This document shows, in pieces, positions 1,369 through 43,281 of a stretch of 43,281 bases of DNA. How positions within the stretch are numbered: the stretch's first letter is position 1; each line of letters opens with the position of its first letter. Made by a program: the position numbers and the translations under genes. The DNA comes from a virus (taxonomy: Duplodnaviria; Heunggongvirae; Uroviricota; Caudoviricetes): the IMG/VR virus record IMGVR_UViG_2909298281_000002, one strand, 5' to 3'. The notes beneath the pieces were generated by a model, which saw only the letters and a program-made list of their open reading frames with translations, did no database searches and had not been told where the DNA came from.

Positions 1369-1444
1369 GCCGATATAGCTCAGTTGGTAGAGCAGCGCAT
1401 TCGTAATGCGAAGGTCGTAGGTTCGACTCCTATTATCGGCACCA
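1369..1444 (+). tRNA. thrW: tRNA-Thr (anticodon CGU)
   Basis: 76-nt sequence GCCGATATAGCTCAGTTGGTAGAGC...GGTTCGACTCCTATTATCGGCACCA with cloverleaf features, anticodon loop TTCGTAA and encoded CCA end; known prophage integration target next to proA. Confidence 0.95.
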
Positions 1445-1460
1445 TTTAAATCAATAAGTT
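1400..1460. other. putative attL junction (3' end of thrW abutting the integrase gene)
   Basis: The integrase stop codon lies 15 nt after the tRNA CCA end. P22-type integrases recombine within the 3' part of thrW. Core limits cannot be set because no attR copy was found in the window. Confidence 0.4.
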
Positions 1461-2622
1461 ACACATCATTAGTACCTTCCTTATTTTTTGACTGGGACAA
1501 ATTTGGGACCGATGGGTTCAGAATCGAGTCTATTTGCCGTGCGTGTTCGGTAAGGTGATTAGGCGCGAGGTGAGCATATCGACGAACCATTTCGATAGAC
1601 TCCCAGCCACCCATTTCCTGTAACACTGACAACGGGACTCCGGCTTGAACCAGCCAACTTGCCCAGGTGTGTCTCAAGTCGTGAAATCTGAAATCATCAA
1701 TACCAGCTCGTCTCAGCGCCGCTTTCCAGGCTGTGTTTGCGTCATACCGCATCTTCCTTACTGTTGGCGCTTTCGTTCCGTCTGGTTTGGTACAGCTTTC
1801 CTTGTACACAAATACCCAACGGTGATGATTCCCGATTTGTTTTTTCAAAACGCGACATGCAGTATCATTCAGCGCAACGCCGATTGCGCGGTTTGATTTA
1901 CTCTCTTCCGGGTTTATCCATGCCACCCGGCGCTGCATATCTATTTGTTGCCATTCAAGGTTGATGATGTTCGAGCGTCTTAAACCTGTTGCCAGTGCAA
2001 ATTCAACAACAGACTTTAATGGCTCCGGACATTCATCAATCAGCCTTTGTGCTTCATGGGGCTCCAGCCAGCGGATCCGTTTATTCTTTGGTTGAGGCAC
2101 TTTAATAATTGGTGCCTTATCCAGCATTTTCCATTCACGCTCTGCGGCTCTTAGTAGGGCCTTTATAAATGAAAGATGCGTAGCCTTCGTTGCAACGGAC
2201 GCTGGTTTTGGCGTGTATTCTGGAACAGGTTTCCCTTTTTTTCTGCATGCTTCTGCCCTGAGTTTCCAGTTTTCCTCATGACGCCGGTTCGTCATTTTCT
2301 GCATTGCTGAATAAATTTTTGATTCAGTAATGTCTCTTAGTTGCATTCCTGCGAAATGTTGAAGCCAGAATCCGATCCGGCTTTTGTCATCGTCCAGTGA
2401 TTTTTTATGTGCTTTCTCTTCAAGCCACCTGACACACGCTTCCTCGAACGTTATATCAGGTATTTCACCAAGTTTGCTGACCCGCCATGCTTCAGCCTTT
2501 AGCTTGTCATGGAGTTCTGTCGCCTGCCTTTTGTCCTTTGTTCCAAGAGACTGTTTAAATCTTTTACCGTTCGGCAATGTGAAACTGGCGTACCATATTT
2601 CACCTCTGCGGAAGAGTGACAT
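1459..2622 (-). CDS. int: tyrosine site-specific integrase (P22-type)
   Basis: 387-aa ORF; near-identical over its length to the phage P22 integrase as I recall it (N-terminus [31 protein letters not shown]-terminal catalytic region with [10 protein letters not shown] and RYAHL); adjacent to thrW. Confidence 0.95.
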
Positions 2623-7652: not shown

Positions 7653-8485
7653 ACAGTTTAACGGCAAATAACCGTTTGTCGCAACAGCTGGTGGTCAGCG
7701 TCGCTGAACACCTGTTGTTACGGCATGAATGCAGATTACCAAATCACCTGGCTGTAAGTAACCACAGAGAACTTTACCTGACTGTGGGGGGCGAGTTGTG
7801 CAGGAACTTAACCGCTGGTTTAGTGACGGAAGAGGACTTTATGTTCATGTTATTCGTTGGGAGCCAGAAACACAGCGCGTTATCTATCTTCGCAAAGACT
7901 ACCCGCATGAGTGCTTTAGTCCTTTGTGGAAATTCAGGCGTGATTTTATTGAGTGTGAAGGACCACCAGCACATTGATTCTGCCATTCCGGGACGTTACA
8001 CTGTTCAGGCACCTTATAAAGCGGGTGCCGGGATTGGCGTCCTGGAATTGATCAAGGCGATATATGACGCGCCAGCGTCTTTTTTATCGTCCGCATTTGC
8101 TCACATCAAAGTTATGGTGGGCTGGGCGGGGGCATCGAAAGATGCGCCGGTTTCCTTGATCACCGGTTACGCCAACCCCGTTCAGTTCACCACCAGCGAA
8201 ATTGGCGTTTCCGGTGGTGGAAGTATTTCACCGATCAAGGAGGCTGCCATCATGGCTACTGTCCCAGCCCTCACTCGTCTGAATGATGAAGACTTACATA
8301 AACTCAGTTATGTAACAACAGCACTACGTGCTCTGCGCAAGGTAACTCTTTCAGATCCGCAGGCGCATCAACTTCTGGTAGAAACCCTTCTTAACTTGCA
8401 GGCTGAACGTATTCGTTTGGCGGATAAGGCTAATCTTCATATTCACCGTCTCCTGAATATCAGCGGAGGGCATCGTCATGCTTAA
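7649..8485 (+). CDS. hypothetical replication-region protein
   Basis: 278-aa ORF; ATG overlaps the upstream stop (ATGA), indicating translational coupling; no motif recognised. Confidence 0.65.
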   Translation: MNSLTANNRLSQQLVVSVAEHLLLRHECRLPNHLAVSNHRELYLTVGGELCRNLTAGLVTEEDFMFMLFVGSQKHSALSIFAKTTRMSALVLCGNSGVILLSVKDHQHIDSAIPGRYTVQAPYKAGAGIGVLELIKAIYDAPASFLSSAFAHIKVMVGWAGASKDAPVSLITGYANPVQFTTSEIGVSGGGSISPIKEAAIMATVPALTRLNDEDLHKLSYVTTALRALRKVTLSDPQAHQLLVETLLNLQAERIRLADKANLHIHRLLNISGGHRHA

Positions 8486-39800: not shown

Positions 39801-40225
39801 CATCGTTTGATTACGGCACTAAATCCACGAATAACACTGGTGCGCATACTCATAGTTTAAGTGGCAGCACGAATGCAGCTGGTAATCACAGCCATAGAGA
39901 TGGCCGTCGATTTAACCCCAGTGTTTTTAAAGATACTTATCAATATGGTTATACAAGCTCAGGTCAAAATACCTGGGGTGTACAAGGCTCAGTAGGTATG
40001 TCTACGGGGTGGTTAGCTAATACCAGTACAGATGGTAATCATAGCCACTCACTGTCCGGCACAGCAGCATCTGCAGGTGCACACGCGCATACTGTCGGTA
40101 TTGGTGCTCATACGCACTCCGTTGCGATTGGTTCACATGGACACACCATCACCGTTAACGCTGCTGGTAATGCGGAAAACACCGTCAAAAACATCGCATT
40201 TAACTATATTGTGAGGCTTGCATAA
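36827..40225 (+). CDS. stf: side tail fibre protein Stf
   Basis: 1132 aa from the ATG at 36827; N-terminus matches lambda Stf ([37 protein letters not shown]); long Ala/Ser-rich repetitive shaft; C-terminus with repeated His-x-His boxes (GAHTHS, GNHSHS, GAHAHT, GSHGHT) ending ...[11 protein letters not shown]. Confidence 0.9.
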
Positions 40226-40806
40226 TGGCATTCAGAATGAGTGAACAACCACGGACCATAAAAATTTATAATCTGCTGGTCGGGACTAATGAATTTATTG
40301 GTGAAGGTGACGCATATATTCCGCCTCATACAGGTCTGCCAGCAAACAGTACCGATATTGCACCGCCAGATATTCCGGCAGGCTTCGTGGCTGTTTTCAA
40401 CAGTGATGAGGCATCGTGGCATCTCGTTGAAGATCATCGGGGTAAAACGGTTTATGACGTGGCTTCCGGCGACGCGTTATTTATTTCTGAACTCGGTCCG
40501 TTACCGGAAAATGTTACCTGGTTATCGCCGGGAGGGGAATATCAGAAGTGGAACGGCACAGCCTGGGTGAAGGATACGGAAGCAGAAAAACTGTTCCGGA
40601 TCCGGGAGGCGGAAGAAACAAAAAACAGCCTGATGCAGGCAGCGAATGAGCATATTGCGCCACTTCAGGATGCTGTAGATCTGGAAATCGCAACGGAGGA
40701 AGAAATCTCGTTGCTGGAAGCATGGAAAAAGTATCGGGTATTGCTGAACCGTGTTAATACAACAACTGCACCGGATATTGAATGGCCAGTAGCACCTATA
40801 GGGTAA
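40225..40806 (+). CDS. tfa: tail fibre assembly protein Tfa
   Basis: 193 aa, near-identical to lambda Tfa ([77 protein letters not shown]); ATG overlaps the stf stop. Confidence 0.95.
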
Positions 40807-41666
40807 ATTCGTAATGATTACCTAAATACGTTATTCTTTTGTTCAAAAAGTGATTTTGCTATAGGTAGGGAGTATGTTCTTGGATTAAGAATAAAAAATC
40901 GCCATGAAAGAGCTTCATGGCGAGTACATAAACGTACAAAATGTGATGAAAGTAGAGTGGCGTAAGCCACTATATTAAGATATGACAATAGCGAACAAAA
41001 GTAAATAACATTTTATGGACGTTTAATTGTTAATTATAAAAACTAGAGTGCCCGATATTGTTTATCTTGCTTTAAAATAATGTACTCAAACCAAATTTTT
41101 GAGCTAAAAGCTCAAATAATATAAATGCAATGATAATGTTTAATAAGACAATTAGCTTGCTTTGTATTTTCATTTCGGAATACTGTTAAGTAACTTTGAT
41201 GACCCTAACAATAGATCGGAATTTTCTTAGAGTCAATGGTCACTGTTTTTGTTTGCAAAGCAAATGTTTTGGTGGTTATAAGTTGTCTTAATATAGTCAC
41301 GCATGCAACTTGTTCCATGCGGAGATTAAAGATTGGAATATAACGCGAAGATGGAATTAAATTACATTTGCAATAATCAATTTATTATTACTCAATAATT
41401 ACCGATATTATTATTGTAAATTAATCATTAGAGTGCAAAAAGAAATATAACGGCAAAATAAGAGGACGATAGCTGAGAAAAAAGCGTGCTTTCCCAATCT
41501 GGGGCAAATCACGTCTGAATGACACCTGAAAACAGGTAGTAGCCTCAAGAAGGCTTGGAATATTCTTCTTTAATATTATGTAATTCATTGATTTTTCGTG
41601 TACGATTTTAAGACATTTATTCCAAGAAAAATTTTTAACTCTTTGATTTTTCGACTCTGTATCATC

Positions 41667-41727
41667 GGTCTCGAAAACCGGAGTAGGGGCAACTCTACCG
41701 GGGGGGCGAATCCCCCTCTCTCCGCCA
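41667..41727 (+). other. tRNA-Ser 3'-half fragment (pseudo-tRNA, probable att-site relic)
   Basis: GGTCTCGAAAACCGGAGTAGGGGCAACTCTACCGGGGGGGCGAATCCCCCTCTCTCCGCCA matches the anticodon stem-loop (anticodon CGA) through the 3' end of the serU-type tRNA-Ser as recalled, with an altered T-loop and no 5' half. Confidence 0.6.
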
Positions 41728-42310
41728 CTTTATCAATGACTTATCTCCCGACTTCCCGCCTTGCTTTTCCTAAACAGAACAATCGTAGAATATTCTTGAA
41801 GGGTTAGATCGTCACTGTTTTCTGTTCGATACTGTGACATTCAGCACTTGATTCGCTATGGATCTGACAGGAAGGTTTCGAGCGAAAATCTGCAGTTATT
41901 CAGTCGTTTTCTTATCGGTCACCATTATTCTTTTAGACATTGATCCTACAAAGCTGCCGCAAAGTTGGTGGTGGGAACTGAAGTTGCGTAGAGAAGGGGT
42001 CAATACCCGGAGGCAAACATGGGCTGGCAAAAGTGTAGCGGTATTAGGCGCAGCTATTTAGCCTAGTTATGTTTTATGAAAACTTGATATCATATAAGTG
42101 TCTTACTTATTGGCTGTAAATAAGGTTTTCTAAGGAATTGTTTCTTTAGTATCATTTGTAACTGTAACGGAATTTATAATCCTTTACTTTATTTTTACGG
42201 TGTTTTTTATCACACCCTATTTTTTATGTGGTTTTTTATACTGAAGTTTGGCAAAGTGAACTTTATATGCATATACTTCATCCTGGTTTCAGTTAAATTG
42301 GGTGGATGAT

Positions 42311-43054
42311 ATGGCAACTACATGTTCAGTTATATTGATTTTGGAGCCCTTTGATGTTTATTTCGGAAAAGAGAGTGTGTTTCTGGATAGAGGTTTATCT
42401 GTACTTGTCGACTCTAGCTATAGAGATTTTTTCCTGACATATCCTGAAAGAGTGATAGTGGCGGATTTTGGCGCTGAGTTTATTAGTCGCTATTTGAAAG
42501 CTAATAACTTAAGGGATATTTCTGATTGTAGGGAATATCCATCTTATTTAAAAATAAACTTTGCTGACTTCAGTTTAATTAAAGGATTAATTAGTTGGGC
42601 TAATCACTGTGCTGAATATATAGAAATTTTTGATGAGTCTATTGCTTTTACATGTCTCTCTGCATTTTCTTCTGAAAAACAATTTGGAGTATTTCTGTTT
42701 GGATGTTTGAAAAGCACAGGGGCTAAAGTTAAAACGATTATTCATACGGATTTATCTGCACCATGGCATCTTAAGGATATATCATCAAGATTATATCTCA
42801 GCGAAAGTTTACTAAAGAGGAAATTGAAAGAAGAGGGGGTATCATTCAGTAAGATCCTACTTGATGAGAGGATGCAAATGGCTGAATATTTACTCAGCAC
42901 TCGTTGTTATCCTATTAGTAAAGTAGCTAAGGTCTGTGGTTATGCCAGTGTCTCATACTTTACTTATGTATTTAGACGTTATTTTGGTGTTTCTCCAAGT
43001 CAATACTCTCAGAGGAGTTCAGAAAGTAAAATTCTTACTCACCAGGGAATCTAA
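42311..43054 (+). CDS. AraC/XylS-family transcriptional regulator (AppY/EnvY/GadX-like)
   Basis: 247 aa from the ATG at 42311 (the track start is a GTG at 42302); C-terminal AraC-type double HTH (WHLKDISSRLYLSESLLKRKLKEEGVSFSKILLDERMQMAEYLL...YASVSYFTYVFRRYFGVSPSQY); lies in very AT-rich DNA. Confidence 0.8.
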   Translation: MATTCSVILILEPFDVYFGKESVFLDRGLSVLVDSSYRDFFLTYPERVIVADFGAEFISRYLKANNLRDISDCREYPSYLKINFADFSLIKGLISWANHCAEYIEIFDESIAFTCLSAFSSEKQFGVFLFGCLKSTGAKVKTIIHTDLSAPWHLKDISSRLYLSESLLKRKLKEEGVSFSKILLDERMQMAEYLLSTRCYPISKVAKVCGYASVSYFTYVFRRYFGVSPSQYSQRSSESKILTHQGI

Positions 43055-43057
43055 TCA

Positions 43058-43281
43058 TTGTTCTTGCCCCCTTATTTCCAGACAGGGGGTGTATCTTAAG
43101 TTAACGTTACCCGCTGACGTCGATATTCTCGCGGAGAGCGATAACCCAACGCACTGTGCGGATGGTTTTCATTGTAATGTTCGATCGCCACTGCAAGATT
43201 ATGCAATGCCGTTCTTATATTCGGTTTCGGCATGAACGCGATGTAGTCTTCCTTCATCGTTTTCACGAACCTTTCTGCCAT
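43058..43281 (-). mobile_element. IS2-like insertion sequence (IS3 family), terminal part only; continues beyond the window
   Basis: Terminal inverted-repeat-like sequence, minus strand TGTCTGGAAATAAGGGGGCAAGAACA, resembles the IS2 end as recalled; adjacent transposase C-terminus; starts 3–6 bp after the AraC stop. Confidence 0.6.
43096..43281 (-). CDS. IS3-family transposase OrfB, C-terminal fragment truncated by the window edge
   Basis: ...[16 protein letters not shown]...[22 protein letters not shown] matches the conserved C-terminal end of IS2-type transposases; the ORF is open to the window boundary. Confidence 0.7.

Follow-up and report, generated by a model that had tools for sequence, protein, structure and literature searches.

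A probable cargo slot with patE and a serU attR remnant at the right end of a lambdoid prophage integrated at thrW

Lambda carries a non-essential slot, the b region, between its tail-fibre genes and attP. Imprecise excision, known from lambda genetics, yields phage genomes that contain attR together with adjacent host DNA. Phages SfI, SfII, SfIV and SfV, like P22, ST64T and L, integrate at thrW. The regulator Z0321 of CP-933H (O-island 8) has been named PatE in the literature; in EHEC (EDL933) it is reported to activate gadE/gadBC/hdeAB and to increase acid resistance, and stationary-phase expression of patE from the lysogen is described as dependent on RpoS. Phage mEp332 is described in the literature as a plaque-forming lambdoid phage that is maintained as a K-12 lysogen.

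The window (the whole stretch of DNA that was analysed, 43,281 nt) has thrW near its left end, at 1369–1444, and stops within a truncated insertion sequence. Positions 40807–43281 lie between tfa, the last tail gene, and the phage attachment arm. The relevant features are as follows.

1369–1462, plus strand: attL, with thrW tRNA-Thr(CGT) at 1369–1444 (ARAGORN, Rfam tRNA)
1459–2622, minus strand: tyrosine integrase of the thrW-specific SfIV/SfII/SfV/P22 type (Pfam Phage_integrase, E 3e-48)
40225–40806, plus strand: tfa, tail fibre assembly protein, last structural gene (PHROG 105, E 2e-98; annotation in relatives)
40807–41665, no strand: AT-rich non-coding phage spacer, 859 bp, GC 0.305 (99.2% identity to MSHS 133 DNA from tfa to the serU attR)
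40899–40923, minus strand: predicted intrinsic terminator for leftward transcription, an 11-bp stem followed by TTTTTTATT (terminator scan)
41030–41203, minus strand: unusually conserved block with a 33-aa hydrophobic ORF at 41072–41173, minus strand (10-copy comparison)
41666–41727, plus strand: fossil serU attR core, last 62 nt of tRNA-Ser(CGA) (alignment to serU, both unoccupied and with a prophage, and to the E2386 thrW locus)
41728–42005, plus strand: host flank copy, 278 bp of the serU-yodB intergenic region (~97% identity to the empty serU locus)
42006–42060, plus strand: 3'-end stub of an IS630-family element, 55 bp (92.9% identity to an element of plasmid pJNE23-001_1)
42061–42310, plus strand: AT-rich patE leader, GC 0.288 (composition and promoter scan)
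42311–43054, plus strand: patE, AraC/XylS-family activator, 247 aa (Pfam HTH_18, HTH_AraC; PHROG 1450, E 2e-94)
43059–43281, minus strand: ISEc48-like stub, IS3 family, IS2 group (Pfam rve_3; IS2-like inverted repeat aligned)

After tfa, the order of parts is spacer, serU attR fossil, IS630-family stub, leader, patE and ISEc48/IS2-like stub.

At the left end, an intact thrW tRNA adjoins the integrase gene. The att core extends from 1399, in the anticodon loop, to 1444, with an 18 bp shared extension up to 1462, and these 64 bp are identical to the attR of strain GN4751 and to the thrW of O157. In tblastn comparisons the enzyme shows 100% identity with the integrase of SfIV, 99.5% with that of SfII, 98.5% with that of SfV and 90% with those of ST64T and L. 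Integration at thrW by this SfIV/P22-type enzyme would have placed int beside thrW (attL) and the cargo beside attR. The prophage shares with the Sf phages and the P22-like phages the integrase type and an att core that begins in the thrW anticodon loop, but it is otherwise lambda-like (lambda-type tail, J, Lom, stf/tfa), and its cargo is patE and not O-antigen-modification genes.

No thrW-derived repeat is present in 40700–43281, the longest match to 1300–1560 being 10 bp (1.2 expected by chance), and the preliminary description was correct in recognising no thrW attR here. Its proposal that the prophage end had been eroded by an insertion sequence is not supported. The prophage of the closest relative, strain GN4751, has the same integrase and matches the window at 99.5% identity at the thrW/int end and 99.3% at the right end (range 99.3–99.7%). 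In it, a perfect thrW core repeat (46 bp; 64 bp with the extension) is found 263 bp past the position that corresponds to the window end; it lies on the right-hand side of the insertion-sequence stub and is preceded by the conserved phage arm. The junction of stub, arm and attR occurs in 140 genomes. The core repeat is also found at the far end in O157 and strain 98234, and with one or two changes in E2386 and PS1Phumofeces1. GN4751 has only two thrW cores, both perfect, and since they flank the whole element, Int/Xis could excise it as one unit.

Extrapolated from these near-identical relatives, an uneroded thrW attR would start some 263 bp past the end of the window, and the predicted right end would consist of a phage arm of about 190 bp (GTGGGACAAAACTGAGACACATAAGG...), the thrW core ATTCGTAATG...GGCACCATTTAAATCAATAAGTTAC and a yagP' LysR fragment. 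For the source genome itself this is an extrapolation because the window ends 28 bp short of the point at which thrW-type and lambda-type right ends diverge; no complete genome identical to the window was found in the genome collection searched. The boundary, left open in the preliminary description, appeared so because the window stops short of attR: it is indeed absent from the window, but the prophage can be taken to run from thrW to the core repeat just past it, with patE and the AT-rich DNA as phage cargo.

Two short candidates for attR were rejected. ATTCGTAATG at 40807 is identical to the 10 nt with which the thrW core begins, but 1.2 such 10-mers are expected by chance, and prophages at serU and the Qin site have these bases after tfa as well. 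The weak attR proposed near 41910 (TTATCGGTCACCA, 41912–41924) is a chance match that lies within the serU-flank copy and is therefore not a thrW remnant; a nearly identical string occurs at the unoccupied serU site.

It is highly probable that the AT-rich stretch lies inside the prophage as the phage's own cargo slot, and does not belong to the chromosome past an eroded prophage end. The genomes of three lambdoid phages obtained as isolates (ev099, mEp332 and PhiR70_1) contain 40807–43281 in full, at 98.4–98.8% identity and between tfa and attP/int; their integrases are of the lambda type, not the thrW type. At thrW in PS1Phumofeces1, the same prophage backbone has different genes between tfa and the arm/attR, and the slot is thus exchangeable. 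It would correspond in position to the lambda b region, extending from the last tail gene to the phage arm of the attachment site. The regulator is a known one, and such a slot is ordinary for lambda-like phages.

The DNA following tfa is AT-rich, as described earlier (GC 0.346 for 40807–43060 versus 0.511 for the remaining prophage), but not uniformly so. The spacer (0.305), the leader (0.288) and patE (0.347) have the low GC that would be expected of H-NS-silenced DNA (0.29–0.35 versus 0.51 for the prophage), and the two serU-derived parts (41666–42005) have values of 0.66 and 0.42. The earlier statement that ORFs of at least 60 aa are lacking in the first 1.5 kb or so after tfa was not strictly accurate, as ORFs of 69 aa (41598–41807) and 67 aa (41858–42061) exist; both, however, extend over intergenic sequence or sequence derived from a tRNA and can hardly be genes.

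By sequence comparison, the spacer is the stretch that normally forms the right end of serU-integrated lambdoid phages. It is shared with ev099, mEp332 and PhiR70_1, and prophages at the Qin site (ydfJ) have its first 575 bp after tfaQ. No diverged homologs were found among the phages searched. The terminator scan gave six sites versus 1.8 expected in shuffled sequences, the strongest being that at 40899–40923. Across ten copies, the block at 41030–41203 has one variable site in 174 bp, compared with 39 in the 405 bp of its flanks (naive Fisher p = 9e-6). The lone change is synonymous in the 33-aa ORF, leaving the peptide identical in all ten, and the leftward RNA 41205–40885 folds with z = -3.5. 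The block gave no Pfam, PHROG or Rfam match, and the peptide has two entries, both unnamed, in a collection of 15 billion proteins. The block is a candidate for encoding a small membrane peptide or a small RNA. The search of the region for small RNAs and short ORFs, suggested in the preliminary description, thus returned this conserved ORF but no Rfam small RNA and, for ORFs of 33–69 aa, no Pfam or PHROG family. Rfam (gathering; E <= 1) found nothing in 40807–43281 except a weak minus-strand match to 'Plastid-psbl-rps4' within the serU fragment, which presumably reflects tRNA-Ser-like sequence. Upstream, a match to Rfam IS009 (40568–40766) falls within tfa.

Next to the spacer is a serU attR fossil with its host flank (41666–42005), which the preliminary description overlooked. 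The core fragment extends from the anticodon loop to the CCA and matches serU at 59 of 62 positions, the three substitutions all being in the T arm. Lacking the 5' half, it is not a tRNA gene, and neither ARAGORN nor the Rfam tRNA model called it. Its left limit is the exact phage/host junction of the MSHS 133 serU lysogen, which has the same tfa and spacer. The serU locus itself is present in 5405 of 5426 E. coli genomes. An active site would have an intact serU attL and a serU-type integrase; the window has a single serU core and a thrW-type integrase, and the serU site is thus a fossil. The flank is joined illegitimately to the IS630-family stub, whose plasmid match covers the last 34 nt of a transposase gene and the next 22 nt, and this junction is found in 537 genomes.

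The spacer, the 62-nt core and the 278-bp flank would together represent the attR of an earlier lysogenic stage at serU, probably captured by imprecise excision or illegitimate recombination, after which the captured flank would have been cut off at the junction within the IS630-family element. An ISEc48-like element may then have landed 4 nt past patE, to be truncated later, and the whole block has presumably since spread by recombination among lambdoid phages with different integrases. patE would be the working gene of the slot, and the rest debris that records its history. The arrangement resembles that of the lambda-bio/gal specialised transducing phages in having attR and adjacent host DNA in a phage genome. 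It differs in that the host DNA is only 278 bp and ends in an insertion-sequence stub, and in that its source, serU, is not the site that the phage uses at present (thrW or att-lambda). Lambdoid prophages at serU (MSHS 133, the CP-933U-like espJ prophage and phage SerU-LTIIb) have the same attR core and flank, and MSHS 133 is close also in its tail fibre genes (95–97% identical) and its post-tfa spacer (99.2%). Those prophages, however, have a serU-type integrase and, at attL, an intact tRNA, whereas here the attR is an orphan in a thrW prophage. An attR fossil of a different site in viable phages is a neat evolutionary footprint, and it provides a compact, datable record of how a cargo slot was assembled (flank capture, insertion-sequence hits and recombination between phages). 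Literature searches on ev099 and on serU attR fossils returned nothing useful.

Two other readings of this block were considered. The prophage might end near tfa with its own attR lost, the spacer, serU fragment, patE and insertion sequence then being an older, decayed thrW island of the CP-933H kind to which a newer phage had fused, giving a locked-in chimera. At thrW in O157:H7, E2386 and 98234, the serU fragment, patE, insertion sequence and attR do follow a phage right arm that is decayed or of another kind (GIY-YIG/pin type), and two different right arms abutting the same serU core show that recombination has occurred in the region. This history is nevertheless decidedly unlikely, given that the contiguous block from tfa to the insertion sequence is packaged in isolated phages and that the only two thrW cores of GN4751 enclose an excisable unit; moreover, a block acquired from a resident remnant would still belong to the present prophage.

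The second reading is that the serU fragment is not inert, and that serU-specific integrases could use it as a secondary attB, or that it offers a portable patch of homology for right-arm exchange. The two unrelated right arms join it where the core begins; one does so at CGGTCTCG, the second 4 nt to the left of that. The GIY-YIG/serU junction is found in 802 genomes, compared with 537 for the flank/IS630 junction, and Klebsiella and Citrobacter phages use the same core as attP. Such a role is very doubtful, because at the loci examined there is neither a serU-type integrase nor a second serU core beside the module, the three T-arm substitutions in the window's copy are as expected for decaying DNA, and ordinary homologous recombination explains the arm swaps. 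Were it true, serU-specific phages could integrate into, or exchange right arms with, a prophage resident elsewhere, and the meeting of two unrelated arms with the fragment exactly at the core boundary would be explained. A broader proposal, that the orphan attR is the natural, fixed scar of a capture of the specialised-transduction type, perhaps acting as a secondary attB or homology patch, and that the strongly conserved 33-aa ORF, which has a terminator of its own, encodes a possible unrecognised small toxin or membrane peptide, is speculative and, taken as a whole, unlikely.

The cargo-slot reading accords with the distribution of its regulator gene, which the preliminary description had correctly placed in the AraC family (42302/42311–43054; the start is ATG 42311 in RefSeq and GTG 42302 for the longest ORF). 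HTH_18 (residues 161–238) and HTH_AraC both score above gathering and form the C-terminal AraC-type double helix-turn-helix. The protein is identical at 241 of 247 residues (98%) to the product of the sole AraC gene of CP-933H, at its right end, in O157:H7 WS4202. That gene is Z0321/PatE, equated by position, annotation and literature, the record having no locus tag. The gene is found in 654 of 5426 complete E. coli genomes (~12%) and at no fewer than three attachment loci (thrW, att-lambda beside ybhB-bioA, and beside intS/argW). Together with the three isolated phages and the identity to CP-933H, this bears out the earlier suggestion of horizontally acquired cargo. The opposite view, that the gene is conserved core chromosome beside pao/yagP and the AT-rich DNA ordinary intergenic sequence, is refuted and has practically no probability left: the gene does adjoin yagP'/paoD backbone in several strains, but it is restricted to that minority of genomes, is missing from the same backbone at the same locus in PS1Phumofeces1, and occurs also at att-lambda, at argW and in phage genomes.

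As in CP-933H of EDL933, no further gene separates patE from an IS3-family stub and, beyond it, the thrW attR, and the same serU fragment and IS630 stub are found upstream. There, the gene sits in a 10-kb remnant behind a GIY-YIG/pin arm; here, with six amino-acid differences, it follows a tfa-spacer arm, and the surrounding lambdoid prophage of 42 kb seems complete and has an intact integrase. PatE is thus not confined to the CP-933H remnant but moves with intact lambdoid phages that form plaques and have two or more types of integrase among them, which is relevant to the spread of acid tolerance by lysogenic conversion. In the present host, patE would be such a lysogenic-conversion function. 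Its best sigma-70-like site is at 42248–42277 (TTGGCA-18-TATACT), with GGTGG 7 nt ahead of the ATG; this promoter is a prediction only, as promoter-like sites are not enriched over shuffled sequences.

The likeness to AppY and EnvY noted in the preliminary description is real but distant, and does not amount to close kinship. Identity is 28% to AppY and 39% to EnvY over 127 aa (C-terminal half), and the NCBIfam models give 147 bits for YdeO (cutoff 348) and 112 for GadX (cutoff 500); with YdeO so far below its cutoff, the protein is not an ortholog of AppY, EnvY, YdeO, GadX or PsrA/PsrB. It belongs, with AppY (DLP12), EnvY, YdeO, GadX and PsrA/PsrB (EHEC prophages), to the AraC/XylS regulators of the YdeO/GadX clade. 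AppY is comparable also as a post-tfa cargo gene of a lambdoid prophage that feeds into acid-resistance control; the tfaX-appY region of DLP12 and the window have only tfa sequence in common.

The IS2-like element reported downstream of patE is an IS3-family remnant, as its minus-strand coding sequence from 43096 and IS2-like repeat at 43059 indicate, but it is a dead stub and not an element. A complete insertion sequence would have both terminal repeats, orfA and orfB; the window holds one terminal repeat, TGTTCTTGCCCCC at 43059 (4 nt past the stop codon of patE), and, in the stretch that starts at 43096 and reaches the end of the window, the last 61 codons of orfB. The stub is 70.7% identical in amino acids to IS2 InsD and 95.7% identical in nucleotides to ISEc48, and in relatives only 210–453 bp of it survive.

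The window opens with proA and thrW, and a lambda-like prophage occupies it beyond the integrase. This integrase is identical to that of the Shigella phage SfIV (100%) and close to those of SfII (99.5%), SfV (98.5%) and the P22-like phages ST64T and L (90%). The tRNA gene thrW is the integration site of SfIV, SfII, SfV, ST64T and L. The features relevant here are:

1–1254: proA, at the start of the window
1369–1444: thrW, tRNA-Thr(CGT)
1459–2622, minus strand: tyrosine integrase, 387 aa
36821–40225: tail fibre, 1134 aa, among the last structural genes
40225–40806: tfa, the last structural gene
40923–40899, minus strand: strong, leftward intrinsic terminator
41072–41173, minus strand: 33-aa hydrophobic ORF (MKIQSKLIVLLNIIIAFILFELLAQKFGLSTLF), within the block 41030–41203
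42061–42310: AT-rich patE leader, 250 bp, following an IS630 stub
42311–43054: patE, AraC gene, 247 aa, with Pfam domains HTH_18 and HTH_AraC

Megablast against 5426 complete E. coli genomes resolved the stretch after tfa into pieces of differing history. The preliminary description had treated it as an AT-rich island, which holds overall (GC 0.346 for 40807–43060, against 0.511 for the prophage) but not uniformly, the values being 0.305 in 40807–41665, 0.66 in 41666–41727, 0.42 in 41728–42005, 0.288 in 42061–42310 and 0.347 in the AraC gene. Nor is it devoid of ORFs of at least 60 aa, as had been thought: there are mechanical ORFs of 69 aa (41598–41807) and 67 aa (41858–42061), both without a family match and spanning tRNA-derived or intergenic DNA.

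The piece 41666–42005 is about 97% identical to a locus found in 5405 of the 5426 genomes, made up of the 3′ part of serU, tRNA-Ser(CGA), with its downstream flank. Three loci were aligned with the window: an empty serU site (strain S30), the occupied serU site of the true lysogen MSHS 133, and the E2386 thrW locus. Identity to serU starts at CGGTCTCGAAAACCGG, within the anticodon loop, covers 62 nt up to the CCA, continues through 278 bp of the serU-yodB spacer and ends abruptly at 42005. The lambdoid prophage that occupies serU in MSHS 133 has an intact tRNA and an integrase at the left end and, at the right end, a related tfa, an 859-bp spacer (99.2% identical to that of the window) and then the serU core. 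Because this lysogen has the same spacer followed by the core, 40807–42005 is the right-hand end of a prophage inserted at serU, plus the attR and some host flank. The 5′ half of the tRNA is missing, and the fragment at 41666–41727 escaped both ARAGORN and the Rfam tRNA model; it is a fossil. Its T arm has three substitutions in the window (41712–41717; GGGGGGGCGAATCCCCC against GGGGGTTCAAATCCCCC) and two in GN4751 (L001 13013–13014), the closest relative, and these show decay of a non-functional copy; the serU cores of E2386 and O157:H7 are unchanged. The motif TTATCGGTCACCA, previously proposed as a weak thrW attR, sits within the DNA copied from the serU flank and is not an attR remnant.

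In O157:H7, E2386 and 98234, the serU core is joined by a different right arm (GIY-YIG/pin type), whose junction lies 4 nt to the left, as might be expected if the fossil still acted as a secondary attB or offered homology through which arms are exchanged. However, the loci examined showed no serU-type integrase and no further serU core next to the module, and such a continuing role is therefore improbable. The orphan serU attR that viable phages carry is a small and apparently unremarked evolutionary footprint.

Some variation was also seen at serU itself. The functional, prophage-rebuilt serU at attL of MSHS 133 (L005 8307–8368) has two variable-arm substitutions (GGAGTGGGGGCAACTCCACC) that look compensatory. 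In the serU lysogens MSHS 133 (L002 5196–5588) and A36 (L016 4535–4927), the annotation shows no yodB between the attR flank and zinT, which lie about 390 bp apart rather than ~1165 bp; this looks like a deletion adjoining the prophage.

Positions 42006–42060 align at 92.9% identity with the final 34 nt of a transposase gene of the IS630 family and the next 22 nt, so that the serU flank is fused to the interior of an IS stub by an illegitimate junction, found in 537 genomes. The patE leader that follows contains the strongest sigma-70-like site of the region (42248–42277), and GGTGG lies 7 nt upstream of the ATG at 42311. Since promoter-like sites were not enriched relative to shuffled sequences, this promoter is only a prediction. 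Beyond patE, the reported IS2-like element is indeed an IS remnant (Pfam rve_3; 70.7% aa identity to IS2 InsD; 95.7% nt identity to ISEc48), but a stub rather than a whole element, comprising a single IS2-like terminal repeat from 43059, 4 nt past the AraC stop, and the last 61 codons of orfB.

The AraC-family gene was likewise correctly recognised, its product matching Pfam HTH_18 and HTH_AraC, but the suggested affinity to AppY and EnvY does not amount to orthology (28% identity to AppY; 39% to EnvY over 127 aa), and the protein is not a YdeO ortholog either (147 bits against a cutoff of 348). It shares 241 of 247 aa with the product of the sole AraC gene of prophage CP-933H in O157:H7, which also lies directly ahead of an IS3-family stub and the thrW core repeat. 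By its position that gene corresponds to Z0321, listed in published accounts as ‘putative regulator (prophage CP-933H)’ of O-island 8 with 6-fold RpoS dependence. Z0321 is patE, whose AraC/XylS-type product activates gadB, gadC, gadE and hdeAB, increases acid resistance and reduces the expression of some LEE genes. PatE matches a full-length phage protein family (PHROG 1450, E 2e-94), and the gene is carried by 654 of the 5426 genomes. Both the regulator and this type of cargo slot are already known.

Four lines of evidence agree in indicating that 40807–43281 is phage and not chromosome: isolated phages, several att sites, the attR of GN4751 and an exchangeable slot in PS1Phumofeces1. The isolated lambdoid phages ev099, mEp332 and PhiR70_1 cover 100% of the stretch at 98.4–98.8% identity; the gene order in ev099 is tail fibre, tfa, block, two transposase stubs, attP, int, xis, and mEp332 is plaque-forming and maintained as a K-12 lysogen. 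The block occurs at prophage right ends at att-lambda (adjoining ybhB-bioA), further at thrW, and also beside intS/argW. The earlier idea that the regulator is acquired cargo finds support and can be made specific, as patE resides in the phage's own cargo slot. In PS1Phumofeces1, the same backbone at thrW ends in the same arm and in an attR that differs at two positions, but the genes from tfa to the arm are wholly different (a 410-aa hypothetical protein, FlxA-like and ‘4-fold beta flower’ proteins; L022 1274–4462), and the slot is therefore exchangeable. The two attR changes, both in the T arm (T to G, A to C), may be paired.

As previously noted, no thrW-derived attR is recognisable here: 40700–43281 contains no such repeat, and the longest word it shares with 1300–1560 is the 10-mer ATTCGTAATG at 40807, where 1.2 are expected by chance. 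GN4751 matches the window at 99.5% over 6 kb of the thrW-int end and at 99.3% over 40073–43281. It has just two perfect matches to the 46-bp thrW core, one being thrW itself. The second begins 263 bp past the equivalent of the last base of the window, with the IS stub on its left and a yagP′ LysR fragment and paoD on its right; the match to attL continues for 18 bp past the core, so that the repeat totals 64 bp, and the core is preceded by about 190 bp of conserved phage arm. This position, and the occurrence of the junction of stub, arm and attR in 140 genomes, argue against the proposal that the IS eroded the prophage end. The thrW-type and lambda-type right ends part at the equivalent of 43309, 28 bp beyond the window, and none of the complete genomes searched was identical to the window, so the attR of this genome can only be inferred; since the left end has a thrW-type integrase and the window resembles GN4751 more closely than it does lambda-type phages, it probably lies beyond the window end.

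Integration by an SfIV-type Int at the thrW core would place the cargo slot next to attR. Most likely, PatE would be made from the lysogen and feed the host GAD/Hde acid-resistance circuit, a form of lysogenic conversion, and the low GC of its leader would fit H-NS control. The spacer, fossil attR and IS stubs would be non-functional records of assembly, for which we infer the following order: (a) attR and host flank would have been taken from a serU lysogen, presumably via imprecise excision or illegitimate recombination; (b) the captured flank would have been truncated at an IS630-family element; (c) an ISEc48-like element would have inserted directly after patE and been truncated later; and (d) recombination would have spread the block among lambdoid phages.

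A search for small RNAs and short ORFs gave no Rfam match in the stretch after tfa, but did reveal a conserved candidate, the 33-aa ORF. Among ten copies (including Qin-site copies, ~96% identical), the 174-bp block 41030–41203 has one variable site against 39 in 405 bp of flanks (naive Fisher p = 9e-6, which treats ten related copies as independent). The peptide is the same in 10/10 copies, the sole nucleotide change being synonymous; leftward RNA over the ORF has a folding z of −3.5, and the ORF lies upstream of the leftward terminator at 40899–40923. It lacks a clear Shine-Dalgarno sequence and matches neither a known family nor an Rfam model, and the peptide occurs only twice, both times unnamed, in a large protein collection. 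It is possibly a small membrane peptide, a toxin or a small RNA.

Several related arrangements were observed. In O157:H7 (L006 21510–22899) and 98234 (L007 10245–11670), the thrW attR after patE is reused by a P4-like element with its integrase directly downstream, a case of tandem thrW occupancy. In strain C3 (L017 3647–8086), the GIY-YIG-serU′-patE-IS block directly adjoins intS and argW, in vegetative order (cargo, then int) and not at the prophage far end, which suggests a rearranged or tandem element. In the thrW island of E2386 (L003 1–3477), the DNA upstream of the patE block includes an anti-phage gene, Avs2 (AVAST type 2). Within the prophage of the window, Rfam gathering-level matches in the early region are the Hfq-binding RNA isrK (8009–8085) and C4 antisense RNA (8110–8197), close to an e14-like repressor region (ymfK/ymfL). 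A full-length match to IS009 (214 bits) at 40568–40766 falls within the 3′ half of tfa, where it is coding sequence.
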